Positions 4,238-64,000 of a stretch of DNA of 64,000 nt are shown piece by piece. Position 1 is the first letter of the stretch, and every line of letters begins with the position of its first letter. Made by a program: the position numbers and the translations under genes. The notes below the pieces were generated by a model. That model saw only the letters and a program-made list of their open reading frames with translations. It was not told the DNA's origin and ran no database searches. Origin of the DNA: a virus; IMG/VR virus record IMGVR_UViG_3300040856_003274, positions 1-64,000 of that record. One strand, 5' to 3'.

Positions 4238-4765
4238 TTAGGGCTTGTATCGGTTGACTACGTTTTCGATTAGAGTGGCTTTCTTCTTTAACCGTTTGCT
4301 CCAATAAAACTTTTGATACGCGTTATTAGCCTTGGGGTCTTTACTGAGTTTGGTGGGAGGAGCGCCTTCTAAATCTTCGTGCTTTCCAGGTGCAAACTCG
4401 TCTTTATGGTAACAGAGGCTATCCGCTCTATCGTCTACGGTTTCCTCTTTAAAGTATGCGTTGAAGTTTTTGTAGTTACGCCTGTCCTCGCTAGAGAGCT
4501 CTTTCCACTTAGCGTAATATTTCTTCAGGAGCGCAGGTCTTTTCTCAGACCAACACTTCCGTATCTTTTTCCGAGTCCATTTGTAACGCTTCTTATTTAT
4601 GCCACCGCCCCTATTTCCGTAGTTGCCCATGCTCTCTTTGCCTTTAGGACGTTCGCTTTTCGAGCTCGCAGGTATCCTCGCGCCGAGCACGTCCATATCG
4701 TCATCCTCATGAGCAGAAGCGGTGATTAACCACCGATCAACGATGTCGCTAGCCATCTTGTTCAT
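4238..4765 (-). CDS. basic hypothetical protein, paralog of 4782-5390; KxAS-signature protein
   Basis: N-terminus MNKMASDIVDRWLITAS, shared LGARIP/KRYxWT/LCYHK/DLEG blocks. Confidence 0.8.
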   Translation of the reverse strand: MNKMASDIVDRWLITASAHEDDDMDVLGARIPASSKSERPKGKESMGNYGNRGGGINKKRYKWTRKKIRKCWSEKRPALLKKYYAKWKELSSEDRRNYKNFNAYFKEETVDDRADSLCYHKDEFAPGKHEDLEGAPPTKLSKDPKANNAYQKFYWSKRLKKKATLIENVVNRYKP

Positions 4766-4781
4766 GGTGGGACTCCTAATC

Positions 4782-5390
4782 TTAGGGCTCGTATCGGTCT
4801 ATAATGTTAGCGACCATCTCTTCGTTCGCCGTTTTCTTGTTAGACTTGAGGCGAGCCTTCCAATATTTTTTATTGTAAGCGGGCTTGTTCCCACCGTTAA
4901 CGTCTTTGGTTTTCTTTACTTTAGGCATACCTTCGAGGTCAGGGTGTCTACCTGGCTTCGCAGGGTTTTTATGGTAGCAGAGGTGCTGCTGCCTAAGGCT
5001 AGCAGTTTCCTTGTTAAAATACGCAGTGAAGTTGTCGTACTTATCTTTTATATTATCCTCGTTTGCTTTCCATTTTTTCCAATGCTCTTTCAGCGCTTTT
5101 TCGCGAGGGCCGTCTTTCTTTTTCCCTTTAGCCGTTGTATATTTACCGCCTCCCCAACATTTGGGTTTCTTTTTCGGAGTCCAGTTATAACGCTTCTTGT
5201 CTACACTCTTACCATACAGAGGGTTACTCTCTTTACCTTTAGGTTTATCTGTGGTGGACTTATTTGGAATCCTTGCGCCGAGGACACCAACATCTCCATC
5301 TTCACTGAAATCGGCGCTGAGGATGTCCCCCTCTTCCTCTGAAGCGGTGAGGAGCCACCGATCTACAATGTTGCTAGCCATCTTGTTCAT
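4782..5390 (-). CDS. basic hypothetical protein, paralog of 4238-4765; KxAS-signature protein
   Basis: N-terminus MNKMASNIVDRWLLTAS, shared blocks with the downstream gene. Confidence 0.8.
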   Translation of the reverse strand: MNKMASNIVDRWLLTASEEEGDILSADFSEDGDVGVLGARIPNKSTTDKPKGKESNPLYGKSVDKKRYNWTPKKKPKCWGGGKYTTAKGKKKDGPREKALKEHWKKWKANEDNIKDKYDNFTAYFNKETASLRQQHLCYHKNPAKPGRHPDLEGMPKVKKTKDVNGGNKPAYNKKYWKARLKSNKKTANEEMVANIIDRYEP

Positions 5391-5536
5391 AGTAAGACCT
5401 CTACTTTAATCTTTAACTGTTTGTGAGTGTATGTTTATAGTCAACCTACCGAACTTGTATTTTTCTTGCATCGGTCTTACTTTCGGCTATCCTAAGCCAA
5501 ACTTCTAACCACCCTAATGACGGGAGACTTAATCTT

Positions 5537-6766
5537 ATGAGCGAGTTTAAGACATATCGCGCAGTCACCAAAATCCACCTCGGACAGATCGAGAGAGACT
5601 TGTACGAGGGAGACATCGTTGAGTTTAACGGCACTACCCTCAAGATTGGGGGCGAGTCTTTTCAGCTAGGTTCTCTACGAGCCGCTGTGTCTAAGAATTG
5701 GCTCGTAGACGCTAATGACTCTACTTCTAAATATGTGCCTCAATCCGCAAACATCGGTGTTCGTAAAGCTGCCGACGCTGGCTCAGAGAGCACTGAGAAG
5801 ACCGTCATTAAGACCGTTAATGATGAAGAGAAGGTTGTCGGCTCTTCTACCCGTATGAGCGTAGAGAACAAAGACACTAACGAAGACGCGGTTGAGATCG
5901 GTAAGGTTAAGACCGCAACGAAGCAAAAGTCTATCCTCAAGGACGGGGCAAGCGTAGACGCTGAGATTAACCGACTCGACAATACGACTCTTAAGTCAAC
6001 CGTGATTAAGCGTGAGGATCAAGAAATTGCTAAATCTCTCAGCGTAGACGAGGCTCAACAGGCTTTTGCTGAGGCTGAGCCCGTAGCTAATCAAGAGCTT
6101 GAGAGCGTTAAAGGTGAGGTCAATGAGATTAAGGGTCAGCTAGCGAGCATGATGGAGATGATGTCTCAGATGATGACCGCACAGCAGACTTTACTGATCC
6201 CCCCCGCGCCTGTACCCGCGCCCGTGATCGAAGAAGACGCATCGGCTAATGTTAGCGTAGATGACGCTAATGAGTTTCAAGACCTCCTCCCTGAGGCTGA
6301 GGTGCTCGGCTCTAATCTCCTAAAGACAGCTTCTGAAAAGCTTTCTTTCGATGACGGGTTTGACGACGAAGACTTTGATGAGAGCCTTGATCTCGACGGG
6401 AGTCTCAGTGACGACTTTGACTTCTTTGGCGACTTCGACGAGGGCGACTTAGTAGAGGTGGATGAAGAGTTTGAAGAAGAGCCTGCTTTCATAAATGAGG
6501 ACATGGAGCCTATCGACCTTCAAGAAACTCTCGATCCTTTAGAGGAAAACGAGGAAACCTCTGCTCCTGTCCCTAATTCTATATCTGACCGTATGATTAA
6601 GCTCAGTAACGGTGATGTTTGGGATATGACTCGCCATTACAACACTCGCGCTTCCGATTTGATTAACAACTATCTCGACAATCCGATCCTCGATGAGATC
6701 CTTTCTCTTGAGGTTAATGGTGTCCGTAAGCGCGTAGCTAATGCGATGAGTAGCGCCGTCTCTTAA
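5537..6766 (+). CDS. acidic hypothetical protein
   Basis: 409-aa ORF, GGGAG RBS, very D/E-rich C-terminal half. Confidence 0.75.
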   Translation: MSEFKTYRAVTKIHLGQIERDLYEGDIVEFNGTTLKIGGESFQLGSLRAAVSKNWLVDANDSTSKYVPQSANIGVRKAADAGSESTEKTVIKTVNDEEKVVGSSTRMSVENKDTNEDAVEIGKVKTATKQKSILKDGASVDAEINRLDNTTLKSTVIKREDQEIAKSLSVDEAQQAFAEAEPVANQELESVKGEVNEIKGQLASMMEMMSQMMTAQQTLLIPPAPVPAPVIEEDASANVSVDDANEFQDLLPEAEVLGSNLLKTASEKLSFDDGFDDEDFDESLDLDGSLSDDFDFFGDFDEGDLVEVDEEFEEEPAFINEDMEPIDLQETLDPLEENEETSAPVPNSISDRMIKLSNGDVWDMTRHYNTRASDLINNYLDNPILDEILSLEVNGVRKRVANAMSSAVS

Positions 6767-6818: not shown

Positions 6819-7202
6819 ATGGACAAGAAAGCAAGCTCACAAGCAAGCTGGGCGCTCTTAGCTCAAGGTGTGACTACTGCTAGAGTTGAGGCGCATCGTC
6901 TTAGACATTTAGTCAACCGCGCTATGAAGATGATTGAGGCTTCTCCTCATAAAGATGCGTTTTATGAGTACGGCGGTGACATTATCGAGGGGATGCCTCG
7001 CAGACTAGATAACATCGAGTCTGAGCTTGACCGTACAAGTTACGCGCTCACGCAGATGGGCGACAAGTTTCTTAGAGGTCGTTTGAGCATAGATGACAGA
7101 GAGCTTGTTAAAGAGACTGTCACGACTCACCGTAACCGAGTCCGTATTAAGAAGATGGCTCAACAGGTTTGTGACCGTTATCTTGAAAACGATATGGAGT
7201 AA
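6819..7202 (+). CDS. hypothetical protein (KxAS signature)
   Basis: MDKKASS start, RBS, upstream TAATCTCTTTATA motif. Confidence 0.75.
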   Translation: MDKKASSQASWALLAQGVTTARVEAHRLRHLVNRAMKMIEASPHKDAFYEYGGDIIEGMPRRLDNIESELDRTSYALTQMGDKFLRGRLSIDDRELVKETVTTHRNRVRIKKMAQQVCDRYLENDME

Positions 7203-7208
7203 GCCGTT

Positions 7209-9071
7209 ATGTCATATCGCCCTGAGTTATTTGGTGTAAAAACTTATGTTGATGAGGGCTCTCAGAAGGGGATTGACACGCTTAATGCAGGAGGCGCGTC
7301 AGCCCTCCCTAACGGAGAGAGCCCTTACCATGAGTCTTACAGATCATCTCCCTCTTCGGTGCGGAGACGAGAGCAGGCTTTACCTATTACTAACGAGGGG
7401 CATCCTGAGGGTAGGGATCGTAAATCCATCCCCGCTCCAGGTGTTTTCTTGACTCCCTCAGACTCTTCTAATAACGGAGATCGACCTGTTCATCAGAGAG
7501 CGCGTATACAGCCGATGGAAGGCGAGCAGTATGGGCATCCTTACATTGATCAGGGGACACACCTTCATAAGAGGCGCACTATGACAGCTAGCGAGCACGA
7601 TATAATCTTAGCTAATATTATGGCTAGAGTCGCTTCTGATCTTGAGGCAGAGGATTTGGAAGCGGATTGGAAGAGCCCAGTTAAGCCTACGTTCAGAGAG
7701 AGACAGCAACCCCAAGCTGGCCCTGCGAAACTCTACCATCAGAGGTACTACCGCCGTCATCGAAATAAGAAAAAGCGCATGGCTAAGGTTAGGCATCGCC
7801 GTAATAAAAACAAAGGCGTTTACAAGCTAGACCGTAAAAGGCGCAACGAACACCCTGAATGGTACATTCGCAGGAAAGCGATTGGCTACCGTTCTAATGC
7901 AGAGCGTTCGAGAGATGATCGCCAAAAGAAGAAAGCCTCTGAGGAGGTTGTGAACAGGTGGCTCATTAAGACCGCAGACTTCTTGATTGAGAGAGGCCCT
8001 GCACATCGCCGTGAGAGTTTATTAGATTACGATTACCAAGACAGCTTACCTAGTGGGGAGCACACTGACTATGGGCTACCTTCACAGTATGCGCCTGTTG
8101 TTAAAGGTACTGCTCCTTTTAATAGGGAAGAGGATGTGATGCCGACTCAAGGGTTTACTCAGCCGACTGTGCGAGATAACCCGGGCTCTGCGAAGGTGAT
8201 CCCTAGCGGTAAGGGCTTTGTAAATAAGCTCGCGAGCAAGAAGGGCTCTAATCTTTTCCTTGAGTACAAGAAAGAGTTTATGAAGCTCCAAAAGGGCAAG
8301 CAACGCTACCGCTCTGAGGCAGGTAATAAAGTCACTTGGATCACTGCTTATAATCAAAAGAACCCTAAAGCGATTGAAGATTTTAAGAGGTTTGCTCAGG
8401 ATAAGGCTCAGAGGGAGCTGAAAGGGATCAAGGGTGCGGCTACGAGACTGAAGACGAAGGCAGGTCGAGTAGCAAGCGCCATTGTCAGCGCCACTAAGAA
8501 AGTTGCTAGTGTTGCTAAGTCTGAAGTCATGGGGATGGTAAAGACCCCTAAAGTCTTATTCGATATGGCGACAGGTAACTATGATTTTGATGACAAGAAG
8601 CAACTCAAAGAAGACTCTAAGATGATTTGGGGCTCTTTAGTTTATTACGGCGGTATCGCGCTTGCCTTATCTACAGGAGGCTTAGGGTCTACTGCGGTGG
8701 CTCTAGGTAAGAGCGTTGCGACCCATGCGACTTTAGGTGCAGTTTCTTCTGATCTCGACTTCTTTGGTTTTTTGAGTGTAGAAGCCGCCGAGACTGTTGC
8801 AGGCGCTGTAGGCAAAGGGAGTGATCTTCAAGAAGCATTGGGAGGGTTTGTCTCCACGGACTTATTTGACGCAGTGGCTTCAGGAGTCTCTACAGCTCTC
8901 TCCGCAGTTGTTGCTTCTTCAGGCGGTTCGGGTAAAGCTAAACCTGAGAGCCCTGATGCAGTTATGCAAGCGGTCTTGACTAAATATTTAGAGCGTATAG
9001 CAGATACGGCTTCGTCTCTAAGTAAGAAAGATGAGATTAAAGTCTTAAAAGGAGCCTTTAATGAAAGGTAA
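7209..9071 (+). CDS. hypothetical protein with basic segments, several KxAS motifs and a hydrophobic G/A-rich C-terminus (possible virion internal protein)
   Basis: 620-aa ORF; RVAS, KKAS, KTAD, KLAS, KVAS motifs; R/K-rich stretch. Confidence 0.75.
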   Translation: MSYRPELFGVKTYVDEGSQKGIDTLNAGGASALPNGESPYHESYRSSPSSVRRREQALPITNEGHPEGRDRKSIPAPGVFLTPSDSSNNGDRPVHQRARIQPMEGEQYGHPYIDQGTHLHKRRTMTASEHDIILANIMARVASDLEAEDLEADWKSPVKPTFRERQQPQAGPAKLYHQRYYRRHRNKKKRMAKVRHRRNKNKGVYKLDRKRRNEHPEWYIRRKAIGYRSNAERSRDDRQKKKASEEVVNRWLIKTADFLIERGPAHRRESLLDYDYQDSLPSGEHTDYGLPSQYAPVVKGTAPFNREEDVMPTQGFTQPTVRDNPGSAKVIPSGKGFVNKLASKKGSNLFLEYKKEFMKLQKGKQRYRSEAGNKVTWITAYNQKNPKAIEDFKRFAQDKAQRELKGIKGAATRLKTKAGRVASAIVSATKKVASVAKSEVMGMVKTPKVLFDMATGNYDFDDKKQLKEDSKMIWGSLVYYGGIALALSTGGLGSTAVALGKSVATHATLGAVSSDLDFFGFLSVEAAETVAGAVGKGSDLQEALGGFVSTDLFDAVASGVSTALSAVVASSGGSGKAKPESPDAVMQAVLTKYLERIADTASSLSKKDEIKVLKGAFNER

Positions 9072-9477
9072 TGTTAAGAGGTGGTGCTCAGACCTAATCA
9101 AAAAAACTGACCCCTCTGTCGTAGAAAAATCTAACTCTCTAAAGCCCATTCAAAGAGGTGAGACTCTTTTCAAAGTAGGTGAATATGAGATCAATGCTGT
9201 AGAGGGTGAAGACCTCGTACAGCTCAACTGCACCTGTAAGTATTGGCGGTGGCAAGGCCCTGAGTATTGGGCGAAGAAGGGCGGTTATCTGCTCGGAGCG
9301 CCTACGGGATCAGCATCTAAACCTAATGTTAGGGATACTAAAAGTAATCATTTTCTTTGTAAGCACACTGTAGCGGTGCTTAACGACCTAAAGTCTAGGC
9401 AGGAAGCCACTAGGACTAAGCGAGCTTCTATGGTAGAGAGGGTACTCAAATCTTTTGAGAAGAGGGAGATAAAATAA
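9061..9477 (+). CDS. SWIM-type zinc-finger protein
   Basis: CTCKYW ... LCKH (CxC...CxH) pattern. Confidence 0.65.
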   Translation: MKGNVKRWCSDLIKKTDPSVVEKSNSLKPIQRGETLFKVGEYEINAVEGEDLVQLNCTCKYWRWQGPEYWAKKGGYLLGAPTGSASKPNVRDTKSNHFLCKHTVAVLNDLKSRQEATRTKRASMVERVLKSFEKREIK

Positions 9478-9860
9478 TGCCTCAATACCCTTACCGATGT
9501 GATCAATGTGACGTGGACGAGATTCGTATTTTGCCTATGTCAGAGTGCAAGACTGAGCAGATGTGCGCCGTATGCGGCAACACTCTTCGCAAACTTTTGA
9601 CCGCCCCTAACGTGATCTTCAAAGGAGATGGGTGGTCTACTAAAAATGAGCGCATTAAGCGCCAAATGAGAGACAAGAATAAGAAGCTCACCGCTAAACA
9701 AAATGAAATGAAGCGCGATGCGCCTAATGTTGACCTAGCGCCTAATGTTGACGGGCAAAGAGTGGACTCATGGTCTGATGCGCAGAAGCTCGCCAAATCA
9801 AAAGGCAAAGATACTAAGAGCTACGAGCCCCTTATCGCCAAAGAGAAGTCTAACAAGTAA
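9477..9860 (+). CDS. FmdB-family zinc-ribbon protein
   Basis: MPQYPYRCDQC...CAVCG...FKGDGW. Confidence 0.85.
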   Translation: MPQYPYRCDQCDVDEIRILPMSECKTEQMCAVCGNTLRKLLTAPNVIFKGDGWSTKNERIKRQMRDKNKKLTAKQNEMKRDAPNVDLAPNVDGQRVDSWSDAQKLAKSKGKDTKSYEPLIAKEKSNK

Positions 9861-13877: not shown

Positions 13878-14318
13878 ATGACTCTCGTAATCTTATTCGA
13901 CAAGCTCCCTAAGAAAAGACAACGCATATCTCCAGCCGACTTAATCGGCGCGGGCTCTCTGCGTAGGAGGCGCAAGCGTGCGTCTTCTACAGGAGGGGAC
14001 TGTTATGAAGCCAACGGCAAATACTTTATGGAGCATTGCCATAAAAACCCTAATCTTAGGCTTGTGCATGGCGAGGTGAGCGGGCAAGGTGAGCTCCACG
14101 ACACGACTTTCGGACATTGTTGGGTAGTAGAGGGCAATCAAGTGCTTGACTTTTCTAATGGAAGAGAAGTTAAACTACCTAAGATGATCTATTACGCGAT
14201 AGGTAACGTCGAGTGGATCAACAACTTTTACGAATATGACGCTCAGTCTTTCCACGATAACATTAGCCGTTATGGTCATTGGGGGCCTTGGGACTTGAAG
14301 ACTCGTAGCGGGCTCTAA
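13878..14318 (+). CDS. hypothetical protein (RKRASS motif followed by a Cys/His-containing domain)
   Basis: GDCYEAN...LVHG...HCWV; possible transglutaminase-like triad, unverified. Confidence 0.6.
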   Translation: MTLVILFDKLPKKRQRISPADLIGAGSLRRRRKRASSTGGDCYEANGKYFMEHCHKNPNLRLVHGEVSGQGELHDTTFGHCWVVEGNQVLDFSNGREVKLPKMIYYAIGNVEWINNFYEYDAQSFHDNISRYGHWGPWDLKTRSGL

Positions 14319-17399: not shown

Positions 17400-17777
17400 T
17401 TAGCCCTCTCGCCAGTCTTGGATTTCTAGGGTCTGCCCTTTTCTCTCAACAAACTTTTTTACGTAGAGAGCAAGAGACATTCCATCTTTCGTCATGACTC
17501 TTAGATTACCAATACTCCCACCACCAAAGAAATGAGTATTATGAAACATAGCCTCATCATCCTCTACTGTCACACGATTAAATTTCGACTCAAGAACCAA
17601 GTTAACGATTTGCCTGTGAGAGAGTAGTTTATTAGTGTATGTAGGTCTTTCTCTCGCTCCTAGAGGGTATTCAGTGTGGATGACTTGTTCTTTAGCGGAA
17701 GCGGTTCTTTTAAGACGAGCGACTCTCATCTCAAGATCGTTAAGATCGTTAAGGATTTCTGAAGCTGTTCTTCTCAT
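17400..17777 (-). CDS. hypothetical protein with MRRTASEIL leader (KxAS signature)
   Basis: GGAGA RBS before the ATG at 17777; leader shared with 39685-40170. Confidence 0.7.
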   Translation of the reverse strand: MRRTASEILNDLNDLEMRVARLKRTASAKEQVIHTEYPLGARERPTYTNKLLSHRQIVNLVLESKFNRVTVEDDEAMFHNTHFFGGGSIGNLRVMTKDGMSLALYVKKFVERKGQTLEIQDWREG

Positions 17778-17950
17778 GGTCTTTCTCCGTTCATGAGTGG
17801 TTATGGACACCTAACCTATAGGCATATAACCTATAGGCATATAAAGAGAATAAAAAAATAAATTACTATGATTGACACCAATAGCTCAGTCGGGAGAGCA
17901 GGGTCGCTCCCATATGATCTCCCGACTTTCCCAAGAAAGGGGTTAAACAG

Positions 17951-18394: not shown

Positions 18395-18920
18395 GTATCG
18401 CTAAACAGTCACCCGATGAAGGAAAAGTGCGTGCTAAGGAAGCCCAAACCCTGCGAGCTTCTGTAGAAGTGCTTCCCATGTTGCAGTAGTTGGGGATGAA
18501 GATGAAAGGTTTATTCCCATTTACACTCCACATTCTTTTAGCAAAATTTAGATACATGGAGAGCCCTACACCCTGATTGTGGAAGTCTTTTTTTAGCATA
18601 GTAGCTTCAACTTCAACTACACTAAAGAAGCTGTCCTTAACGATGAGATCGGAGTAGGTTTCAGCGAGTGTTCTCATGTCTTCTCTACAGTCATCGTAAT
18701 TGTAATCTTCATAATCGTACAAGACGAAATCATTTACACTTTTAAGAGTCCCTAAAATCTTGCCTACAGGCTCTAAGTCTTCGTTCATATTAGAGCGGTG
18801 TTGTACGATGAGTTGGTAAGCCTCTTTCCAATATTTGAACTTAGAGTAGTCGAAGAGGGGGGATGAAGCATGGCGACTAGTCCATGCCTTTAATACGTTG
18901 TTAACCATGTCTCTTTTCAT
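18381..18920 (-). CDS. GNAT-like domain protein behind a short KxAS-type leader
   Basis: FHNQGVGLSMY (acetyl-CoA motif A-like) and TSTEARRVW; leader VNNVLKAWTSRHASS. Confidence 0.55.
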   Translation of the reverse strand: MKRDMVNNVLKAWTSRHASSPLFDYSKFKYWKEAYQLIVQHRSNMNEDLEPVGKILGTLKSVNDFVLYDYEDYNYDDCREDMRTLAETYSDLIVKDSFFSVVEVEATMLKKDFHNQGVGLSMYLNFAKRMWSVNGNKPFIFIPNYCNMGSTSTEARRVWASLARTFPSSGDCLAILREP

Positions 18921-18996: not shown

Positions 18997-19626
18997 ATGG
19001 AAGATACAGCTAAGAAGATCGCTAGTTTATATGCTGAGCGCATGGGTGAAGATGACCATTTTGCAGGGCGAGATTGGGGCATCAACAACGTGCAAGGTCA
19101 GTACAACGCTAAGCCTGGGTACAAGCAAGAATACGGCTCAAAGGTCAAAGAGTTTCTGAAAGACCTCGGTAAAGATGAGATTTCATGGACAGAGCGCGAC
19201 CGTAAAAACTACCGAATGTTTTGGGGCGCGAAACACTCAAACCCGCCTCGTTACATTAAGTACAGGAACATGAGCAACCCTTGGGTAGAGGACTACTGCA
19301 AACGCTCAGGGCGCACTAACGGTATTTGCGGCAAAGAGGGGAAGAAAGCTAGCAGTGTTCTCCCTGCGGATACCCTGTCTCCCGATGTCGCTGTGCTCCT
19401 CAACAGAGAGCTAGCTCGCACTTGTACCCATTTAAGGTGTAGCAAAGGTGAGGTGCTCAACGCAGTCAACAGCGTGTTGAGTCCTTTCGGTTTGCGTGTT
19501 GTACCTACTCAAAACCCTCACGTCTTTAATGTGGGGGCTATGTGCTCTGTTGGTTGTATGCCTCTTAAGGGCGCAGAGCTTATTTTGAAGAATAGTGCGG
19601 AAGGCTGGGGTGCGCGAGTTGAGTAA
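18997..19626 (+). CDS. hypothetical protein (KIAS/KKAS motifs)
   Basis: 209-aa ORF, upstream TAGGTTCTTTATA motif. Confidence 0.7.
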   Translation: MEDTAKKIASLYAERMGEDDHFAGRDWGINNVQGQYNAKPGYKQEYGSKVKEFLKDLGKDEISWTERDRKNYRMFWGAKHSNPPRYIKYRNMSNPWVEDYCKRSGRTNGICGKEGKKASSVLPADTLSPDVAVLLNRELARTCTHLRCSKGEVLNAVNSVLSPFGLRVVPTQNPHVFNVGAMCSVGCMPLKGAELILKNSAEGWGARVE

Positions 19627-27897: not shown

Positions 27898-29170
27898 ACG
27901 CTTCCCTCACTTCTGCGAGGAAGCTACGCTCCTCTGAGGCTTTCTTAGCGACAGGTTTTTTCGATGCCTTTTGAAGGGTCTTCTCAAACTTGTATTGTAG
28001 CTCGATCTCTTTGACTTGCTCAGGAGTGAGGTTTTTGAGGTCATCAAAAGCCTGCTCGACAGCTTCCCCGTATGCTACGTACATCTTTAAGATTAGAGCG
28101 AAAAGCTCAGCTTCATACTTCTCTTGCTCGGTCTTAACACCAGCTTTTTTGAAGCAGTTTTTCTTTTGAAGGTCTGTAATCCCGCTACAGTCTACTCCCA
28201 TTAACTCGTCAATCTTTTGGACTTTCTCTTTAGCATAGCGCCCTACGGCATTTGTAATGAATGCACCTACCGCACCTCCGAGAGGGCCAAAGGCTACAGT
28301 ACAGCCTACACCGACAGCAACGTCAGTATATTTCATCAAAACATCGGAGACTGCCCTAAGAGAAGCTCTTTTCTTCTCTACAGTCTCTTTGTGTTTTTGA
28401 AATTTGTCTCTAGCTTCATCAAGCGTTCGCTTTGCACCTTTAGGCCCCGCTCTCTGAGCTTTCGTCAGCTTCTTGTCCTTCTTTTTAGGTCTAGCCGTGT
28501 TTAATGCCGTGTCTAATAGGAAAGAGGCGAACTGCATCCACTGCTTGCCTTCTTCCTTGACGGCTTTCTTTAGGTCTTTTGCGCTGAAGAGGTTTTTAGC
28601 TTCTTTAGCCGCTTTTTCATATGCCTTAGCGTCCTCAAAGCCTAGTGCTCTACTCGTAGCCTCTTTAGCAAATTGGCTTGCTGTACCTAATCCGCGTCCT
28701 CTAAGCCTTTTGGCGGCATCCCCTTTTAGTTTGTATTTTATACGTTTACCTTTGCCCTTACCTCTACCGCCTACAGTGACCTTTACCTCGCTCTTTTTTC
28801 CTTCGCCCTCCTTTCCTTCGCTCTTCTTTCCTTCACCCTCCTTTCCTTCGCCTCCCTCACCTTCAGAAGATTTACCTTTCTTCTTCTGTTGTTTTTTCCA
28901 CCGATCATACCACTTGTCCATGATCTCTTTGTGTTTCTCGTTCGTATAAGGGTCTAAAGAGGTGATGAGCACTTCGTTACCTGTGTCAGGGTTGCGCTCT
29001 TTAATCTCCATCTTCCTTACGTCTTGAAGAAAGTCTGTAGGGTAAGTGACTCCACTTTTCCCTCTACCCTTGGAGCCTTTAGATTTAGAGCCTTTTCCTA
29101 TATAGTACCGCTTGAGCGATGAGGGTGCTCTCATTCTCTTGGGGGTAGTCTTTGCTGTTCTTTCAAACAT
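27863..29170 (-). CDS. lysine-rich hypothetical protein (possible internal virion protein)
   Basis: K/G-rich, GEGKEGEGKKSE repeats, glycine-zipper-like hydrophobic segment, RTAK/KKAS motifs. Confidence 0.7.
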   Translation of the reverse strand: MFERTAKTTPKRMRAPSSLKRYYIGKGSKSKGSKGRGKSGVTYPTDFLQDVRKMEIKERNPDTGNEVLITSLDPYTNEKHKEIMDKWYDRWKKQQKKKGKSSEGEGGEGKEGEGKKSEGKEGEGKKSEVKVTVGGRGKGKGKRIKYKLKGDAAKRLRGRGLGTASQFAKEATSRALGFEDAKAYEKAAKEAKNLFSAKDLKKAVKEEGKQWMQFASFLLDTALNTARPKKKDKKLTKAQRAGPKGAKRTLDEARDKFQKHKETVEKKRASLRAVSDVLMKYTDVAVGVGCTVAFGPLGGAVGAFITNAVGRYAKEKVQKIDELMGVDCSGITDLQKKNCFKKAGVKTEQEKYEAELFALILKMYVAYGEAVEQAFDDLKNLTPEQVKEIELQYKFEKTLQKASKKPVAKKASEERSFLAEVREAFNEACDFEDDL

Positions 29171-38507: not shown

Positions 38508-38520
38508 GAGGCAAGTTGTT

Positions 38521-39684: not shown

Positions 39685-40170
39685 ATGAGAAGAACAGCTT
39701 CAGAAATACTATCTGACATTAAGGACCTTAAGATCAGAGTCGCTAACTTAAATTATTCCTCTATGGTTACGATTTCATCGGAAGCGCGGAAGCTCCTCGA
39801 CCATGCGCGTACTATACCTGATCTTGCTGCCTCGAATAAGAGTGATCTAGGGACTCTGATGCACATCGGGTTGCCCCCTATAATAACGAGGTTGCATAGA
39901 GCACTTAAGGCTAAGGCTAAGGGTGGTGAGTCCGTGACAGAAATGGATTTAGAGTTGCTTCAGTTCTGTGTGTATCTACACAACGAGCTGGCAAATGGCG
40001 GGGCGTGGACTCTTGAACCTGCACCTGTCAATCAGCAGTTGAACCCTAGAGCTTTTGATGAGGTTTCAGGGGCTCGGTCAGGTTGGGTAGTTGAGACTAT
40101 CGTTCCTAGCATCCCACAAGTAAGCGCACTTAGGGGGCTAGTCAAAGTGACAGCGCGTCGTCCTCAATAG
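39685..40170 (+). CDS. hypothetical protein with MRRTASEIL leader
   Basis: AGGAG RBS, upstream TATTCCACTTATA, leader shared with 17400-17777. Confidence 0.75.
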   Translation: MRRTASEILSDIKDLKIRVANLNYSSMVTISSEARKLLDHARTIPDLAASNKSDLGTLMHIGLPPIITRLHRALKAKAKGGESVTEMDLELLQFCVYLHNELANGGAWTLEPAPVNQQLNPRAFDEVSGARSGWVVETIVPSIPQVSALRGLVKVTARRPQ

Positions 40171-40214: not shown

Positions 40215-40508
40215 CTAAAGACTCTTGAGTAGGTGAGGAGGGATCTCTTTCCCATAGATTTTCCTGAGTCTAAAAGATACGTCCTTGTGCGCGTCTTTAT
40301 ACTCAGTAAAGAATAAAGGGGCTCTTTGTTCCCATGCCTTGTAGCCGATTTCTTTGACGAGCTCAGCGATCTTGTAAGCATCTACTTGGTGTATGCAATC
40401 TTTAATCGCCTCAGAGCCTTTTACGGGCTCTAATGTTACAAACAGCATGAAGATTTGATTAGCCTGCTTGTATCTCTTAGCTACTCTGCGTGCTTGCTCT
40501 TTTCGCAT
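40215..40508 (-). CDS. hypothetical protein (RVAKRYKQAN leader)
   Basis: 97-aa ORF with GAGAGG RBS. Confidence 0.6.
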   Translation of the reverse strand: MRKEQARRVAKRYKQANQIFMLFVTLEPVKGSEAIKDCIHQVDAYKIAELVKEIGYKAWEQRAPLFFTEYKDAHKDVSFRLRKIYGKEIPPHLLKSL

Positions 40509-42547: not shown

Positions 42548-43624
42548 ATGAGACACCTGACAGCTCGACAAAGAAAATCAAAACTTAGGCTTCACTTAGA
42601 CACTCACGTTAGTAGGCTTGTGCGGGAGTTTAGAAGTCATCTTGATATGTACATTATGAGCAACAAGGACGCTCTGATTAAGAGTATAGGGGATAACTTC
42701 GACTCTCGTATCTCTCCCATCATTGACTCGATCCCTAGCCATGAGACAGACAGTGATTTTTTTAGAGGCGGTGTTTATGTGTCTCTCTCTTACTTCAACT
42801 CAAGAGATCCTATCCAATCTTACTTTAAAAACGGTTACGGGGTTGAGGAGACTCTTGCTAATCTAATAGAGCAGACCACAGATCGAGGAGATTTTTCTTT
42901 AAGCGATGCTTACGACAAGTGGTTTTACTATTACAGCCCTCTCTTAGCGCGGGCATTAGGTAAGGTTAAGATACAAACTAACCCTTTCCTTGTAGATGCT
43001 TACAAAGGTAAGGCGCTTAACTTCTTCTCTCATAGCGCACTCTCTGCCTTTTCGATTTTAAGCCACCTGCTGAGATTTTTTAAAGCACCTGGACTTGTGG
43101 TAGAGGCGGCTCTTGTTGCGCTCTTCGCACCTAAGAAGAAAGCTGTAGAGAGACACCTTAATATTAAGACTGCTTCTGTAAAGGTAGCCCAGCGATACCT
43201 AATCGCTAAGGCTCTCGAAGATGACGAGAAGCGAGACATCTATAACAGGTGGCATAAGCTCATCAACATGACACAGAAAGAGCTAGAGGATTGGGGGGAC
43301 AACCCTGAGCGCCTAAAAGCCTCTCTCAACAGGCAGAGAGCCAAAGAGGAAGGGGGCATACAGAGCGGTTATGACTCTTTCCGAAGAATAGTGCGTCGTA
43401 AGTCGAAGCCCTTCAAAGATTGGTCGCCACAAGACTTCCAAAACGCTCAACAAGAGATAAACTTTAACACTCGTATGCTTGGGAACAACCCGGGTCAACC
43501 TGTGAACAAAGACATTATGAAATCTAAGTGGGAGATTAGCCTGCTTAACTGGGGGCATGACCCGTCTAAGAAAAGCTCACCCTCATATGGTAAATGGAAG
43601 GCATGGAAAGATGACCTTGAATGA
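42548..43624 (+). CDS. two-domain protein with C-terminal DUF3140-like domain after a KTAS/KVAQRY linker
   Basis: INMT..ELEDW...SG..S...W.ISLLNWGHDP. Confidence 0.65.
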   Translation: MRHLTARQRKSKLRLHLDTHVSRLVREFRSHLDMYIMSNKDALIKSIGDNFDSRISPIIDSIPSHETDSDFFRGGVYVSLSYFNSRDPIQSYFKNGYGVEETLANLIEQTTDRGDFSLSDAYDKWFYYYSPLLARALGKVKIQTNPFLVDAYKGKALNFFSHSALSAFSILSHLLRFFKAPGLVVEAALVALFAPKKKAVERHLNIKTASVKVAQRYLIAKALEDDEKRDIYNRWHKLINMTQKELEDWGDNPERLKASLNRQRAKEEGGIQSGYDSFRRIVRRKSKPFKDWSPQDFQNAQQEINFNTRMLGNNPGQPVNKDIMKSKWEISLLNWGHDPSKKSSPSYGKWKAWKDDLE

Positions 43625-49418: not shown

Positions 49419-49638
49419 GAAGAGAATAACTCTAATACTCCTAATCTCGTTAGGCGCTTGCGACGAGAGCGCCCAGCTTGAAGAACCTAAGACACTCTGC
49501 GAACAAGTGTCTGATAAACTCTACGAGTGTATCGGAGGCAGAGTACCTATTACCTACTGCTCACAAGAAACTGCGGATTATATACTCAACGCACCCTGTG
49601 AGGATGTGCTTGAGTTTATTAGAGGCTCTCAGCGGTAA
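49417..49638 (+). CDS. small Cys-rich lipoprotein
   Basis: MKR + hydrophobic + LGAC lipobox; GAGGA RBS. Confidence 0.7.
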   Translation: MKRITLILLISLGACDESAQLEEPKTLCEQVSDKLYECIGGRVPITYCSQETADYILNAPCEDVLEFIRGSQR

Positions 49639-52115
49639 TACCAAATATTAGGCTTAGCAGAAGTACCCCACATAGCTTTTAAGCCCTCAGAGGAAGCCAC
49701 CTTACGTCTCAGGTGAATATGAGGCTCTATTTTGCGCCAAAATGCTGTGCTCTTGAGAAGATACTCTATCTTGTGCTGTGGAGCATTTATATCGAACGCA
49801 TAGAGCTTTACATCAGCCTTACCTGGAGCGCCGTGATAGATCACATTGCCGTATTCAGCATAGTAAACAATGACCCCTACCATAAGAGGTGAGGTAATCG
49901 CCCAATTCCCGTAATCGTTAACATTGACTTTCCAAACGTTAGGCTTAGGGGGAGTACCCCATTTGAGCTCAATCTTTTTCTTATTTGGTGACGCTATGCT
50001 AGCAACCTTAGGGATAGTGAGATTAATCTTCCCTGACTGGATAGCAGGCTTAATGACATTCTTCCAAAGTGCAGGATGCGCCATTAGCTCTACGCTAAGC
50101 TTAAGACTATGCTTATCTAAGAGTTTGAGCGTAACTACTTCCCCGCCTCTCTCCATATACTCTAGCTTAGAGTAAGAGCCTTGCTTAAACGTGAGGAAGA
50201 TGCTCCCAACCATCGCAGGTGAGTGTACCACGTAGCCCTCTTCACCTCTACCCGTAAACTGTAGGAGCTTGTTCTCTACCACCTTCCACATATTAGGTTT
50301 AGGAGGGTCGCCCCATTGGAGCTTAATGTCTGTCGGAGGCGCAAGCCAGTCATTCGCGATCTTCATGGATTTCCACCCGCCAGTCATTTTTTCAGGATGC
50401 CTTTTCTTAAACAGTTTTACTAACTCCCAACCCTTAGGGCTCAAATAAAAATCAACGGCGCTCTGAAAGTCATCCTTAGTCCTGTGTCTTGAGAGGACTT
50501 CTCTCCCATAGCGGCTCTGATAACTGAGCTCCCAAGCACCTTGCCACCTGCCGATGCTAAACACGCTCTTATCAAACGCTGAAGAGATGATTAAACCAAT
50601 AGGTTGGCCTGCCTTTTCAGGGTTAGGGCTGTAGACTATCTTAGTCTTCCACATGTTAGGTTTAGGAGGATCGCCCCACTGAACCGTATAACTTCCGCTG
50701 TCAGAAGCTACTTTGGTATTAAACGCTTCTATCGAGAAGTTGCCTAGGGCGCTCTTTATCTGAGCCCAACCCTTTTCGCTCAAGAAGAAGTCTAGCGCCT
50801 CTTCAAAGTTAACACGCTCGCTCAGAAAACTATGTAAATCTTCATATGGGTCGCCGTCGTCTCCTTCAAAAATGATGTACCACCGACCACGAAACTTAGA
50901 CAAAGTAATAGATGTGTGGGGGAGGAGAACAGGAGAAGTTACCACTGCTTGCCCGTCATTCTCGCTAATCTTAATTACAGACACCTTCCACAGGTTAGGC
51001 TTAGGAGGGTCACCCCACATAGCTTTTAAGCCGTTAGAGGAAGCCACCTTGGTTTTAAAGATACCACCCTTCTTTCGCATAAAATCTTTAATCCAACTCC
51101 AGCCCTCTTGACTTAAGAAACGATCTCTCGCCCTCTCAAAAGTGTTAGCTTCAAACTCTATAATATGGTGCTCTTCGTTGTAAGGATTAAAAGATACCTC
51201 CCATGTACCCTCCGCTAGCTCCGTGAGCGTAATGTTCGACATATTTCCGCCGTAAAGATTAGGGCAAGTGACCTCCATCCACTCCCTCTCCCGATAAGCA
51301 CTATCACGATAAGTACCCGTTTTGACTTTCCACATGTTAGGTTTAGGCGGGTCACCCCACATAACTTTTAAGCCACTAGAGGAAGCTACCCTTGTTTTGA
51401 AGACCTGCTTTCCACCTCTCGATGACCTTATCGCTAACCAACGACCTATCATGTCCCAACCCTTTTCGCTTAAGAAAATAGATAACGCTTTCTCAAAGTC
51501 AGGAGCCGAAAACGTACCTATCCTTTCATAAACGTCGTCCATGCTAGGGGAATACTCTATCGACCACTTATCTAATCCTTCGAGCCACCGTAAATAAAAA
51601 GAAGTGTCTTCCCCCTCAAGGAGAGGCGACTCAACAACCGCTTGCCCTCCCCCAAGATCAGATCTGTCTACCCAAACCTTCCACGCATTAGGCTTAGGCG
51701 GATTACCCCAACGAGGCTTAAGATTAGGCGCAATATCCATAGATGCCACCTTCGAGCCCCCATGCGTTAACTTGATCCTCCCGTCAAAAATCTTAGGCTC
51801 GACGTAGGCTTTATAAAACTCATGGGACGTGATCTCGCTAAGAGGCATATTAGGATGGTTTCTAGGCTCTAAAGAGATCACGTCTGAGTAGTAATCCTCA
51901 ACGTATCCGCTACAAGCAGAGGCTCGCACCTTAGGGTCATGTACGATCCTAATGTAACCCTTTATCAAAGGGGAGCTCACTCGAAGCGTCTCGCTAATAA
52001 CAATGTGTCCAGGAGGCTTTAATTCTTGCTCCACTTTCCAAATGTTAGGCTTAGGGGGATCTCCCCATTGAAACTTAATGTCGTGTCTCGGCTTGAGCTT
52101 AGTATCATCCATCAT
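49629..52115 (-). CDS. WGxPPKPNxWK-module repeat protein C (7 modules plus terminal stub)
   Basis: eight motif copies; linkers KVASM, RVASS, KVASS, KVASD, KIAND, KVASI, KVASS; GAGGAG RBS before 52115. Confidence 0.88.
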   Translation of the reverse strand: MMDDTKLKPRHDIKFQWGDPPKPNIWKVEQELKPPGHIVISETLRVSSPLIKGYIRIVHDPKVRASACSGYVEDYYSDVISLEPRNHPNMPLSEITSHEFYKAYVEPKIFDGRIKLTHGGSKVASMDIAPNLKPRWGNPPKPNAWKVWVDRSDLGGGQAVVESPLLEGEDTSFYLRWLEGLDKWSIEYSPSMDDVYERIGTFSAPDFEKALSIFLSEKGWDMIGRWLAIRSSRGGKQVFKTRVASSSGLKVMWGDPPKPNMWKVKTGTYRDSAYREREWMEVTCPNLYGGNMSNITLTELAEGTWEVSFNPYNEEHHIIEFEANTFERARDRFLSQEGWSWIKDFMRKKGGIFKTKVASSNGLKAMWGDPPKPNLWKVSVIKISENDGQAVVTSPVLLPHTSITLSKFRGRWYIIFEGDDGDPYEDLHSFLSERVNFEEALDFFLSEKGWAQIKSALGNFSIEAFNTKVASDSGSYTVQWGDPPKPNMWKTKIVYSPNPEKAGQPIGLIISSAFDKSVFSIGRWQGAWELSYQSRYGREVLSRHRTKDDFQSAVDFYLSPKGWELVKLFKKRHPEKMTGGWKSMKIANDWLAPPTDIKLQWGDPPKPNMWKVVENKLLQFTGRGEEGYVVHSPAMVGSIFLTFKQGSYSKLEYMERGGEVVTLKLLDKHSLKLSVELMAHPALWKNVIKPAIQSGKINLTIPKVASIASPNKKKIELKWGTPPKPNVWKVNVNDYGNWAITSPLMVGVIVYYAEYGNVIYHGAPGKADVKLYAFDINAPQHKIEYLLKSTAFWRKIEPHIHLRRKVASSEGLKAMWGTSAKPNIWYYR

Positions 52116-52461
52116 TAGACTCCTCTTTAGGTTCAGTAGGTTCTTTAGGTTCAGTAGGTATAACACCTGACACTATTAAGACTTTCTTCTTTAACACCTT
52201 CACTAAAAAAGCATTAAGCGCCCCCGCAGAAGCCCCTAACCACAAGTCAAGTACGTCATAGCTCAATGACCAACCCACAAAACCCCCCACAAACACAGCG
52301 GCTAATCTAATCACTGCGTCAGCCTTCTCATTACATGTCCTGAAGATAAAAGGCTTCACTGCCTGAGTCACCGCAAAACTCAACACCGAGGCTATACACA
52401 CTAAGTATACATGCCCCATGTGCGGCTCAACTGGCGCTGCCGATATGCCTGCTAATAACAT
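52105..52461 (-). CDS. small multi-TM membrane protein (holin-like candidate)
   Basis: three hydrophobic helices, charged C-terminus with TEPKEP repeat. Confidence 0.5.
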   Translation of the reverse strand: MLLAGISAAPVEPHMGHVYLVCIASVLSFAVTQAVKPFIFRTCNEKADAVIRLAAVFVGGFVGWSLSYDVLDLWLGASAGALNAFLVKVLKKKVLIVSGVIPTEPKEPTEPKEESNDG

Positions 52462-55744: not shown

Positions 55745-56305
55745 GTAGCGGAGGGAGTCGAGGGTTTCAGAGGTAGCTCTCCACACGTTTTTAGGCACTT
55801 TAGATACGAGAGGAAGACCTCCTGCCTCTCTCTCGTTAAGAATACGGTTACGAGCGTGGTATTGAGCCCTTTGATGGGTTCTCTCGCGCTCAACACCTGG
55901 ATCATCGACGAGAGCATTAAATAATACGAACAAGATTAGAGCGATGCCCGCGCCAGGGATGAAATAGGCGAGTGTAGCCGCGACGACTGCAATGCCTAAA
56001 ACAGAGTTGCTGATCCCCAGCTCTTTACGGAAAAAGTGGGTAAAGAACTCCTTAACCTTCTGAAAAGAGCTCCGTGGAGGTACTTTTTCGAGGGATTTCA
56101 TAAACTCAGGGTTTCTTTGGAGCTCTCGGACAGCCTTTTTGATGTCTCGCTCAGGCATGTAGAGAAGAGCTTTCTCAACGCCTTTGCCAAAGGAGCTGAG
56201 CATAGACAGCACCTTTTCTTTAAGCCTTTGGAGGGCGGCTTCTTTCTCAATGTGGGCAACTCTGTGTTGGAGGCTAGCGAGCCTCATCATTTGTTGATTG
56301 TTCAC
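55736..56305 (-). CDS. membrane protein with RLAS leader
   Basis: MRLASLQHRVAHIEKEAA leader, two TM helices; upstream TAATGTCTCTATA. Confidence 0.65.
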   Translation of the reverse strand: MNNQQMMRLASLQHRVAHIEKEAALQRLKEKVLSMLSSFGKGVEKALLYMPERDIKKAVRELQRNPEFMKSLEKVPPRSSFQKVKEFFTHFFRKELGISNSVLGIAVVAATLAYFIPGAGIALILFVLFNALVDDPGVERERTHQRAQYHARNRILNEREAGGLPLVSKVPKNVWRATSETLDSLRYLT

Positions 56306-59093: not shown

Positions 59094-60140
<1,047 letters not shown>

Positions 60141-61856: not shown

Positions 61857-61859
61857 GAC

Positions 61860-62843
61860 ATGGATCGCACAGCATATATGATGAAGAGAGCCTCTGCTCA
61901 GAACGAGTTAGCCTTTAAGATAGCCAACGGGCTATTTCTTACAGAGGCTGACAAGGCTTCTAATGAGATTTCCGACGAAGCTAAACAGGGCTTGGCTCTT
62001 ATCCGTAAGGGCGCTGGGTGCAACTCACTCTCTGCTTTCCTTAAGCAGACTGAAGGTAAGCAAGACATTGACGACACTGACCCAATACAGAAGCTCATAA
62101 AGGCACGTCTTCAAGGAGTCACTTCACCTGAAGAGGCTCAAGAGGTCATTGGCACTTTTGCAGTTGCTTATCAGAAGAAAGACATCGTGAAGATGGCTAA
62201 GATCGTGGAGATTGAAGCCAAGGTAATGTCTCTCATCTTGTTGTGGTACGTAAGAGATGATCAGAGCTTGTGGCAGAACAACTCTCCTATGGCAAGAACC
62301 GCCGCTAGTCGAGGCTATAACCGTCGTTATCGGTCACTTAAGAAAGTGCTCACCCTAATCTTAAAGGTTTCAGAGGGTACGCTTAGCTTTGTAGAGAAGA
62401 TTACAGGCGGTGTATCAGACTGGATCGTGCGTTTTCTTCCTGCTACTGCTGGCAAGTTAATCGGTAAGCCTATCAAGTGGGCTCTCTTGACAGGGATCGC
62501 TCTAAAAGCGTGGCCTACGATTACTCAGCTTGTAGCACTTAGTAAGCCTCTGTTCGCTCTAGCGGTGCTCAAGCTGAAGCTCTTAGTAGGGCCTATCGCT
62601 TTCGGCTCTGTAGTGTCTACCGCAGGGTTCGCTTTGGCGGTCTTGGCGGTCGCTTGGTTTGGTTACCAAGTCAAAGAATACCTCGCATGGGCGAAAGGTA
62701 AGCTCCTAGAGGCTATCAAGCTCCCTTTCGCATCGCTCCTGTTGATCCTTAAGACGGTGTTTAAGGGTGGCTACAGCCTTCTTAGATGGGCTTTTAGGGA
62801 CATTAAGGGCTACATTAGAGAGAACCGCGCTCTACTCACCTAA
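61860..62843 (+). CDS. hypothetical protein with KRAS/RTAAS motifs and a hydrophobic C-terminal half
   Basis: 327-aa ORF, multiple TM-like segments. Confidence 0.7.
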   Translation: MDRTAYMMKRASAQNELAFKIANGLFLTEADKASNEISDEAKQGLALIRKGAGCNSLSAFLKQTEGKQDIDDTDPIQKLIKARLQGVTSPEEAQEVIGTFAVAYQKKDIVKMAKIVEIEAKVMSLILLWYVRDDQSLWQNNSPMARTAASRGYNRRYRSLKKVLTLILKVSEGTLSFVEKITGGVSDWIVRFLPATAGKLIGKPIKWALLTGIALKAWPTITQLVALSKPLFALAVLKLKLLVGPIAFGSVVSTAGFALAVLAVAWFGYQVKEYLAWAKGKLLEAIKLPFASLLLILKTVFKGGYSLLRWAFRDIKGYIRENRALLT

Positions 62844-62864
62844 GAAACTTCAGGAGTCGAGGCT

Positions 62865-64000
62865 ATGGACAAGCGATCAGGCTTAATCAGACCCCCTCAA
62901 GGCTTAGTAGACCGTCTCACCGTTATCGGGCGAGGCGCGACGGCTAAATATTGGCTCGACAGGGAAGAGAGGGAGAGGGGTCAGAAGTGCCTCGATCAAG
63001 AAGATGTAGACGGCTTTGAGTGGGTTATCGAGGACATTGACGACCTCTGTCGTAACATAAGAAAAGGCGAGGTCAGCTTAGATGACGTTAAGTGGACTTT
63101 CCAAGCTAGTTTAAACACCACTAAACTTATCTTAGACAAGTGCGCCAGCATAGGGCTGACAATCCCTGCTCTTACTACAGAGCGCGTAATCTTAGCGCAT
63201 AAGAAACAGGAAGCGGCGCTAATCTTTGAAGACGAGCGGAGCTACCGCAATGAGCTTGCTGGGCTTGTGTCGAGGCTTGAGGCTATTCTTACAAAGACCC
63301 TTAAAACGCTAGTAGGTGAGCCTCTCTTCTCTGAGACTATGAGGGAGCAATACTTAGAGGCGAGTGCTCAAGTCGAACACAACGACCAGCAGTCATGGGT
63401 TGTCTTTGACTCTTTCTTAGGTGAGGTTAGACTTAATCTTATCATTAAGCGCACACCAACCTTAGGGAGCTATGTTTACAGGGGCTCTCAACATACGCTC
63501 CTGCTTTACGTGCATCCAGGTCGTGTAGGGTTTGACTTAGGAGAGATTAGAGACGTAGTGAGGCATGAGCTAGTCCACGCTATGCAAAAGCAGATCAGCC
63601 TTAATAACGAAGTCTCTCAAGCAGGGTTGCCACGCTCTAAGAGTGGCGTTTATCGCCAAGGTATGAGGGAGAAAGAGAAGGAGCTCAAAGTCGAGTACGC
63701 AAGAAAAGGGCTCGACCCTGAGGATGTGTCTATCCATGCGCTCGATGACATTGAGTTTTACTCGCGGCTACTTGATGAGGTGGTCAACTTCCAGCGTATT
63801 ATGGGCAGTAATCCGAGTAACGCCGATATACACAACCACATCTCTCGAAGGCTGTTCTTTAAGAGCCTCAAGCGCCAGCCTAAGAAATGGCGTAAAGCGG
63901 TAGGTATCTTCTCTTCTGAGGTGATGTCTCGTAATGTTAGGCGAGCCTCTGAGTTTAAGACTCCGCGCAAATGGAGTAAGGCTCATTGTGAGTCCAAGAG
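62865..64000 (+). CDS. HExxH-motif protein, runs off the window (absent from the ORF track)
   Basis: AGGAG/GAGG RBS, MDKRSGLIRPP start; in-frame VRHELVHAMQ (His codon at 63564), downstream EF motif and RRASE. Confidence 0.7.
   Translation, partial: MDKRSGLIRPPQGLVDRLTVIGRGATAKYWLDREERERGQKCLDQEDVDGFEWVIEDIDDLCRNIRKGEVSLDDVKWTFQASLNTTKLILDKCASIGLTIPALTTERVILAHKKQEAALIFEDERSYRNELAGLVSRLEAILTKTLKTLVGEPLFSETMREQYLEASAQVEHNDQQSWVVFDSFLGEVRLNLIIKRTPTLGSYVYRGSQHTLLLYVHPGRVGFDLGEIRDVVRHELVHAMQKQISLNNEVSQAGLPRSKSGVYRQGMREKEKELKVEYARKGLDPEDVSIHALDDIEFYSRLLDEVVNFQRIMGSNPSNADIHNHISRRLFFKSLKRQPKKWRKAVGIFSSEVMSRNVRRASEFKTPRKWSKAHCESK

Follow-up and report, generated by a model that had tools for sequence, protein, structure and literature searches.

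A Lys/Arg-x-Ala-Ser motif as a probable recognition site of the head-maturation protease in an uncultured huge phage

Proteins inside the head of phage T4 are processed by the prohead protease and carry targeting leaders. The T4 enzyme, gp21 (MEROPS S77), is encoded in the head module and reads L/I-x-Glu. Short N-terminal leaders ending in this motif are common to otherwise unrelated small proteins, the targeting leader alone is conserved among the internal proteins (IPI-III and Alt), and the scaffold is chopped at many sites while tail proteins are untouched. The herpesvirus assemblin (MEROPS S21) cuts Ala|Ser at both its release and its maturation site, with a hydrophobic residue at P3 ([VLI]-x-A|S); it is joined via a conserved site to a scaffold-like extension, and the scaffold carries a site about 25 residues before its conserved C-terminal tail. 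We know of no polyprotein arrays in the lineage of phages phiKZ and SPN3US. In these phages, phiKZ gp175 and SPN3US gp245 process many head and ejection proteins at one short motif ([AGS]-x-Glu), cutting after Glu and removing propeptides (PMC5694885, PMC10052503, PMC7411985). Here we consider another motif, [KR]-x-A-S (Lys/Arg, any residue, Ala, Ser), in a 64,000-nucleotide stretch of viral DNA (the window), which is the first 64 kb of the linear IMG/VR record IMGVR_UViG_3300040856_003274 (G000, 168,266 bp). A preliminary description of the window had read the motif as a capsid-targeting and prohead-protease cleavage signal with Ala at P1. Our analysis gives a rough probability of 0.6 to the reading that the motif is recognised by the head-maturation (prohead) protease which the phage itself encodes in its head module, an enzyme of the serine type with the gp21/assemblin fold.

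The window proteins, without the three array genes described below, contain 35 motif sites against 12.2 expected from residue shuffles (z 6.6-7.1; 0 of 400 shuffles reach the count). Among the 400 [KR]-x-a-b patterns Ala-Ser ranks first or second, also when shuffling is confined to blocks of 12 or 20 residues (z 6.5-7), and the permuted control [KR]-x-S-A is flat at its expectation. Nine of the 68 window proteins have a site within the first 20 residues, whereas 1.2 would be expected when the N-terminal segment alone is shuffled. The preliminary description had not noticed the motif at such positions in metabolic enzymes, and the enrichment indeed separates orphans from proteins of known family: the 57 window orphans carry 29 sites (8.0 expected), and the proteins with a Pfam family, namely sugar and nucleotide enzymes, HU, methyltransferases, volactin, topoisomerase, sheath and the ClpP-like protein, carry seven (4.0 expected), none of them N-terminal. 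The motif instances it had quoted are all found in place, the one at 5390 belonging to open reading frame (ORF) 4782-5390 on the minus strand. It had also noticed a V-x-x-R-[W/Y] helix beside the motif, and such an adjoining helix, [VIL]-x-x-R-[WY]-[LK], is indeed found nine times (2.3 expected), seven times at a protein end. The motif carriers are mutually unrelated by BLASTP, and scans against Pfam and PHROGs gave no family for most window orphans. About one-third of the individual sites are probably expected by chance, so that the large packaged proteome envisaged earlier is a prediction and not a finding.

The head module is found on a second contig. This 105-kb contig (G001), from a different sample, is 94-97% identical to G000 and overlaps both its start and its end, and the genome map therefore closes at about 259 kb; this is well under the roughly 400 kb implied by completeness estimates. 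The 91 kb missing from G000 were read from the unique part of G001 (8160-99355), which encodes the large terminase, the portal, the protease, a scaffold-like protein and the major capsid protein. The gene order in G001 and its relatives is portal ... protease, scaffold-like protein, a 223-residue protein and major capsid protein.

The motif is concentrated in this module, which holds 18 sites against 2.6 expected. The scaffold-like protein has eight sites. The C-terminal extension of the protease has two, of which one lies 25 residues before the end; a 286-residue protein has three close to its start, a 107-residue protein has one within its C-terminal tag, and an 817-residue protein near the module has ten. 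The portal has a single site, at residue 15, that relatives do not conserve; neither the motif nor a delta domain is present in the major capsid protein of G001. A second concentration lies in the eight array genes (three within the window), where K-[VI]-A-S closes each module of about 115 residues (40 sites versus 3.4 expected). The remainder of G000 outside the arrays, consisting of tail, baseplate and replication genes, is at background (17 versus 16.5 expected). Expressed per 1000 residues, the density is 5.4 in the head module, 8.2 in a gene cluster at 73-78 kb of the gap (read from G001), 8.1 in the arrays, 1.9 in the non-array proteins of the window and 0.64, equal to background, in tail and replication proteins. 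This is the distribution expected if an enzyme acting only inside the prohead reads the motif. It predicts, as is the case in T4, a scaffold chopped at many sites and tail proteins left untouched.

The protease matches phrog_2774 (4e-26) in addition to the head maturation protease family listed in Table 1, and a full HMMER search gave 2035 homologs at E <= 1e-3. It belongs to no Pfam family, including S77 and S78, a PF04586 search of G000 gave no match, and searching PDB sequences with the protease as query gave neither gp21 nor any other entry. Since its matches are confined to these two PHROGs, it forms a distinct sequence family. An AlphaFold2 model built on an alignment of 72 homologs (33-93% identity) has a confident domain at residues 30-250 (pLDDT > 90), a disordered linker at 253-364 and a helical C-terminal part. 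The closest PDB structure to the domain is T4 gp21 (5JBL; Foldseek probability 0.99, VIA Z 11.7, rmsd 3.3, 147 of 165 residues), followed at middling scores by the proteases of varicella-zoster virus (1VZV, Z 7.8) and human cytomegalovirus (8J3S, Z 6.3). As modelled, the enzyme is a serine protease of the T4 gp21/herpesvirus assemblin fold (MEROPS clan SH). The candidate catalytic residues H56, H128 and S179 (in S-M-G) are invariant in the 72 homologs, and H230 is nearly so. Residues 189-230 form a Cys/His insert in which C189, C192 and C203 are invariant and C228 and H230 are present in at least 90% of homologs; the insert is probably a zinc site. The fold and the location of the gene in the head module are thus as in T4, whereas the 511-residue length with the Cys/His insert and the long helical C-terminal extension are not.

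The protease also bears on the motif through its own sequence. The alignment columns just after the catalytic domain hold Lys or Arg in 66 of the 72 homologs, Ala in 65 and Ser in 36, and they lie within the linker that is predicted to be disordered. This conserved [KR]-[AVT]-A-[S/x] is a putative release site of the herpesvirus type between the protease domain and its C-terminal extension, and the arrangement recalls assemblin, which is likewise joined through a conserved site to a scaffold-like extension. We place the cut after Ala because Ala and the basic residue are constrained and the next residue is looser. Many homologs have an additional [KR]-x-A-S near residue 25.

We scanned IMG/VR with the protease alignment and obtained 80 loci, of which 77 come from phages with proteases 40-63% identical. 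The co-directional proteins of these 77 head loci, ranging in GC from 0.33 to 0.69, contain 759 [KR]-x-A-S (203 expected; a pooled count that includes orthologous positions), and R-x-A-S (282 versus 66) and K-x-A-S (266 versus 81) are the first and second of all 8000 a-x-b-c patterns. Loci of the same clade outside the head module (L008-L012 and L017-L025, some from the same contigs), which served as negative controls, show no motif excess. An enrichment in L026-L028, L033 and L034 was discarded as an artefact of wrong-frame ORFs in GC-rich DNA. The layout recurs among the relatives: protease sites lie near residues 25 and 270-300 and close to the end, the scaffold has four to ten, and the capsid protein usually has none. 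In 24 aligned scaffolds, a [KR]-x-A-S stands 22-28 residues ahead of a strongly conserved C-terminal tail, with one or two more sites just upstream. This layout is that of the herpesvirus maturation site, and the tail is putatively capsid-binding. Complex prediction for the major capsid protein with the last 60 scaffold residues gave a score of 0.00, which has no bearing either way. A tag of the form [KR]-[VIL]-A-x-[RK]-[WYFH]-[LM] is found 41 times in relatives (0.4 expected). The comparison suggests a code common to hundreds of related huge phages. Apparent differences between fused and split head genes in relatives were uninformative: the separate forms are truncations at contig ends, and the junction lacks the motif. 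Among relatives whose proteases are just 40-63% and whose scaffold tails are about 45% identical, the identity of the major capsid protein is 85-91%; by this measure the capsid protein is unusually frozen.

Sequence homologs of the protease with 31-38% identity are annotated as head maturation proteases in the Tunturiibacter phage Tunturi_5 (gp331), in Rhodococcus phage E3 and in mycobacteriophages of cluster C. In Tunturi_5, which has been cultured, K-V-A-S stands right behind the protease domain. The protein in the scaffold position has four sites, one of them 18 residues from its end, a 'DNA ejection protein' has five, and the capsid protein has none. Myrna gives a weak motif signal only.

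The motif-bearing features of the window and head module are collected in Table 1. Several belong to families with homologs near the head module of relatives: those of ORFs 5537-6766, 6819-7202, 7209-9071, 18381-18920 (minus) and 17400-17810 (minus) are found within 8 kb of the protease, the homologs of ORF 5537-6766 directly follow the major capsid gene in eight relatives, and in L086 the first three of these families come directly after the capsid gene. In the lysine-rich family of ORFs 4238-4765 and 4782-5390, 13 homologs have the 17-residue leader without any change and a C-terminal tag that is nearly invariant, whereas the body averages 56% identity. The same 13 homologs mark the long plus-strand ORF 4722-5342 as spurious, the true gene being 4782-5390 on the opposite strand. 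The start [KR]-A-S-S-Q of the 6819 family is retained in five of six distinct distant homologs from the head loci of relatives. In ORF 7209-9071, the sites at residues 140 and 241 and the site-helix-site unit are retained at 67-72% identity, and a block ending N-K-x-A-S at residue 340 is invariant down to 30% identity. The AlphaFold2 model of this protein has a mean pLDDT of 39.7, and its sites therefore cannot be placed at domain borders. An apparent natural split of ORF 7209-9071 at the tag, seen in L016, was set aside as a probable frameshift error in a contig rich in fragmented genes. ORFs 17400-17810 (minus) and 39685-40170 share a 22-residue leader only, and this leader also heads several different small genes per genome in the head loci of relatives. 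Here too T4 offers the parallel, both in short N-terminal leaders that end in the protease motif on otherwise unrelated small proteins and in conservation of the targeting leader alone; the presence of tags at C-termini as well is unlike T4.

Table 1. Motif-bearing features of the window (G000 coordinates) and the main head-module proteins (contig G001)
Feature	Position	Strand	Remarks
N-terminal leader, ORF 4238-4765	4715..4765	-	K-M-A-S, short helix ending R-W-L, then I-T-A-S
C-terminal basic tag, ORF 4238-4765	4241..4291	-	K-K-A-T, then helix ending N-R-Y; K-T-A-S in some paralogs
Leader identical to that of 4238-4765, on tandem paralog ORF 4782-5390 (lysine-rich)	5340..5390	-	C-terminal tag 4785-4838
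K-T-A-S in acidic stretch, ORF 5537-6766	6323..6334	+	Site turnover between strains
Leader M-D-K-K-A-S, ORF 6819-7202	6819..6836	+	C-terminal tag 7152-7199
Five sites, ORF 7209-9071	7626, 7929, 8226, 8466, 8499 (span 7626..8510)	+	7929-7982: K-K-A-S, helix, K-T-A-D
C-terminal K-R-A-S and helix, SWIM-like ORF 9061-9477	9418..9474	+	Retained in 57%-identical ortholog
K-R-A-S following Arg run, ORF 13878-14318	13974..13985	+	Retained, with one-residue shift, in L014 ortholog
Leader from internal Met, ORF 17400-17810	17697..17777	-	R-T-A-S, heptad helix, R-T-A-S
Leader, ORF 18381-18920	18864..18920	-	Helix, then R-H-A-S; homologs in head loci of 4 relatives
Leader ending K-I-A-S, ORF 18997-19626	18997..19026	+	Retained in 51%-identical ortholog
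K-K-A-S 27 residues from C-terminus, ORF 27863-29170	27935..27946	-	Second site 28361-28372
Three-module (WG-x-P-P-K-P-N) array gene, K-[VI]-A-S at the end of each module	36411..37478	-	
Three-module array gene, K-[VI]-A-S at the end of each module	38488..39612	+	
Leader M-R-R-T-A-S and helix, ORF 39685-40170	39685..39750	+	
N-terminal tag R-R-V-A-K-R-Y-K, ORF 40215-40508	40458..40508	-	Tag without Ser
K-T-A-S and helix ending R-Y-L, ORF 42548-43624	43166..43219	+	Between N-terminal part and DUF3140 domain
Array gene, eight WG heads, six K/R-V-A-S junctions	49629..52166	-	
Leader ending R-L-A-S, ORF 55736-56305	56273..56305	-	
Leader ending K-R-A-S, ORF 61860-62843	61860..61895	+	
Two of four sites, ORF 62865-64598	63138..63950	+	Other two past window end, including C-terminal K-I-A-S and R-Y tag
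Prohead protease	L040:10528-12063 on G001		511 residues; phrog_18299 'head maturation protease' match, 7.8e-12
Scaffold-like protein	G001 head module		544 residues, acidic
Major capsid protein	L040:14603-15481 on G001		292 residues; phrog_2522, 4e-50

If the head-maturation protease reads the motif, proteins bound for the prohead interior would carry the site in an N-terminal leader, in a C-terminal tail or between modules. A basic amphipathic helix with the approximate consensus [KR]-V-A-S/x-R-[YW]-L, which often overlaps or abuts the site, would serve to load or anchor the protein. The protease would act once assembly is complete, its cut probably falling between Ala and Ser. It would thereby free itself of its C-terminal extension, chop the scaffold and take off the capsid-binding tail of the latter, trim the leaders and tails of cargo proteins, and separate the modules of the arrays. 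The earlier proposal of targeting combined with prohead-protease cleavage after Ala is therefore sustained in part. The gp21/assemblin-fold protease, the density of sites among head-module proteins, the conserved sites on either side of the protease domain, the roughly 77 related loci and Tunturi_5 all point to it. From these comparisons we infer that a cut is made and at which bond, that the helix acts in loading, and that the window orphans are packaged. The support for cutting and packaging is thus comparative.

The proposed scheme would share with assemblin the Ala-Ser core of the motif, the presumed Ala|Ser cut and the position of the scaffold site, and it departs from assemblin in having Lys/Arg rather than a hydrophobic residue at P3 and a scaffold that is mainly a separate gene. 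With phiKZ and SPN3US it would have in common that a single short motif directs the processing of many proteins, both head-internal and for ejection, with removal of propeptides, although the motif there is different and the phages belong to a different lineage. The motif also differs from that of T4, as does the absence of both motif and delta domain from the major capsid protein. A wider reading is that the whole family of about 2000 huge-phage head proteases works like assemblin (Ala|Ser cut, basic P3, release and maturation sites), and that the present lineage has extended the code to load and cut dozens of extra proteins, including lysine-rich proteins associated with DNA and arrays that would give rise to about 40 hypervariable mini-proteins, the whole set reaching the host together with the DNA. 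We advance this wider reading tentatively, as a possibility that falls short of being probable.

Several observations weigh against the head protease as the reader of the motif, or limit how far that reading extends. The protease and the head module were read from a 94-97% identical strain and not from G000 itself. The release-like site in the phage's own protease is K-V-A-F, from which it follows that Ser is not obligatory, and some sites fall within predicted helices. The pooled counts in relatives (759 versus 203) are inflated by orthologous positions and do not represent independent events. The assignment of the window orphans and arrays is based on the motif and on partial synteny. Outside the head module, distant relatives have no excess, and the extension of the motif to the orphans and arrays of the window would therefore be specific to this lineage. 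Nor does the reading account for the loading of array polyproteins into the prohead. The orthologs of window proteins in L014 retain only about 5-6 of 16 sites in position, about what drift would leave, and the overall excess there (17 versus 4.4 expected) is kept largely through turnover. Such turnover would fit short linear motifs in disordered proteins, and it is weaker evidence than strict conservation.

An unlikely alternative, though the least unlikely of those considered, is that a different, dedicated cytoplasmic protease cuts the motif, either the ClpP-like protein of the window (44021-44671) or a protease beside the distal arrays of G000, the enrichment in the head module being separate or secondary. 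The arrays and many of the orphans are distant from the head module, and ORF 44021-44671 encodes a true Clp-family protein (PF00574, 2e-25). However, Clp proteases are not site-specific, the gene sits among those for TK, DHFR and ThyA (thymidylate/folate), and no Clp match was found in G001, the contig of the head module. The preliminary description had offered this gene as a processing enzyme, an idea that its place among nucleotide-metabolism genes, away from the head module, speaks against. A search of G000 for PF03412 (C39) gave no match. Beside the distal arrays, the 796-residue ORF that ends G000 (165742-168266) is the C-terminal part of a 2493-residue SNF2/helicase-like protein (L043:6399-13880); it matches no protease family, which is not an exclusion. 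A dedicated protease would leave the protease-flanking sites, the scaffold sites and the clade-wide enrichment in the head module unexplained, and the head protease explains more with less.

It is also improbable that motif and helix together are only a docking or address peptide, used uncleaved for prohead loading or for binding to a hub protein. A bare motif free of any helix occurs eight times in the scaffold, 40 times in the arrays and in the linker behind the protease domain, and the site at a fixed distance before the conserved tail of the scaffold fits release by cleavage. What docking would account for is the invariance of the whole 17-residue leader and tail, which is more than a four-residue cut site requires, as well as the strong over-representation of the tag in relatives and the existence of tags without Ser (40458-40508). 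A docking role of the tag may coexist with cleavage by the head protease.

That the Ser is instead a modification site is very improbable. Basophilic kinases have the consensus R-x-x-S, found for instance in Kemptide, to which [KR]-[KR]-A-S is similar, and the window encodes a glycosyltransferase, a UDP-glucose dehydrogenase, a GlmM-like protein and a nucleotidyltransferase that might point to glycosylation. No match to Pkinase (PF00069) was found in G000 and G001, at the protease boundary Ala is the best conserved residue and Ser the least, and the distribution tracks the head module rather than surface proteins. That the signal arises from chance or composition, or marks a generic helix N-cap (Ser ahead of a helix) of disordered proteins rich in Lys, would account for about one-third of the sites, for the many that precede helices and for the modest positional conservation between strains, but this is scarcely credible given the excess under local block shuffles, the rank among 400 patterns, the flat permuted control, the restriction of the enrichment to modules and the first place among 8000 patterns in relatives.

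We further noticed several genes and regions around these features. The phage actin homolog encoded at 25306-26343 of the window belongs to Volactin (PF25216, E 1.8e-76), which has been described from haloarchaea; the three [KR]-x-A-S sites of this homolog appear to reflect chance or fold conservation. A type IB topoisomerase with a Lys/Thr-rich tail (PF01028; 46597-48168, minus strand) has homologs inside the head loci of 19 relatives, and it may on this account be a virion protein. Among the orphans are three FmdB-type zinc-ribbon proteins (PF09723), at 9477-9860, just after ORF 9061-9477, at 14332-14529 and at 27463-27897, and the SWIM-like domain of ORF 9061-9477 is fused to the 7209-9071 family in distant homologs. 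Outside the window, a full-length ATP-dependent phosphoenolpyruvate carboxykinase (PF01293, E 2e-206) is encoded at G000 90329-91966 (L002:6329-7966, minus strand), directly after three array genes. G000 is gene-poor around 77000-85300, where short repeated words prevail and the ORFs are repetitive and spurious only. The giant 2493-residue SNF2/helicase-like protein recalls packaged DarB-type proteins.

Processing by a prohead protease is itself known. In a literature search of limited breadth, the specificities found were the Glu-specific motifs of T4, phiKZ and SPN3US, and no Lys/Arg-x-Ala-Ser specificity was found for any phage protease; nor did this search find a cleavage specificity for the proteases of Tunturi_5, Rhodococcus phage E3 or cluster C mycobacteriophages, the phage G and Tunturi papers containing no cleavage data. 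What would be new here is a large uncharacterised protease family with an apparently assemblin-like Ala-Ser logic, spread in this lineage to orphans and polyprotein arrays. If this is true, a four-residue pattern and a short tag would suffice to predict from the sequence alone, for hundreds of uncultured huge phages, the proteins that enter the capsid and are probably injected, and the positions at which they are trimmed. The prediction is directly testable in the cultured relative Tunturi_5. The paired tag and site would offer a handle for loading foreign cargo into large capsids. Many orphans would fall into one definite class, head-internal or ejected, in which anti-defence functions could be sought, and a phage protease with the assemblin fold and Ala-Ser logic would strengthen the link between phage and herpesvirus capsid assembly.

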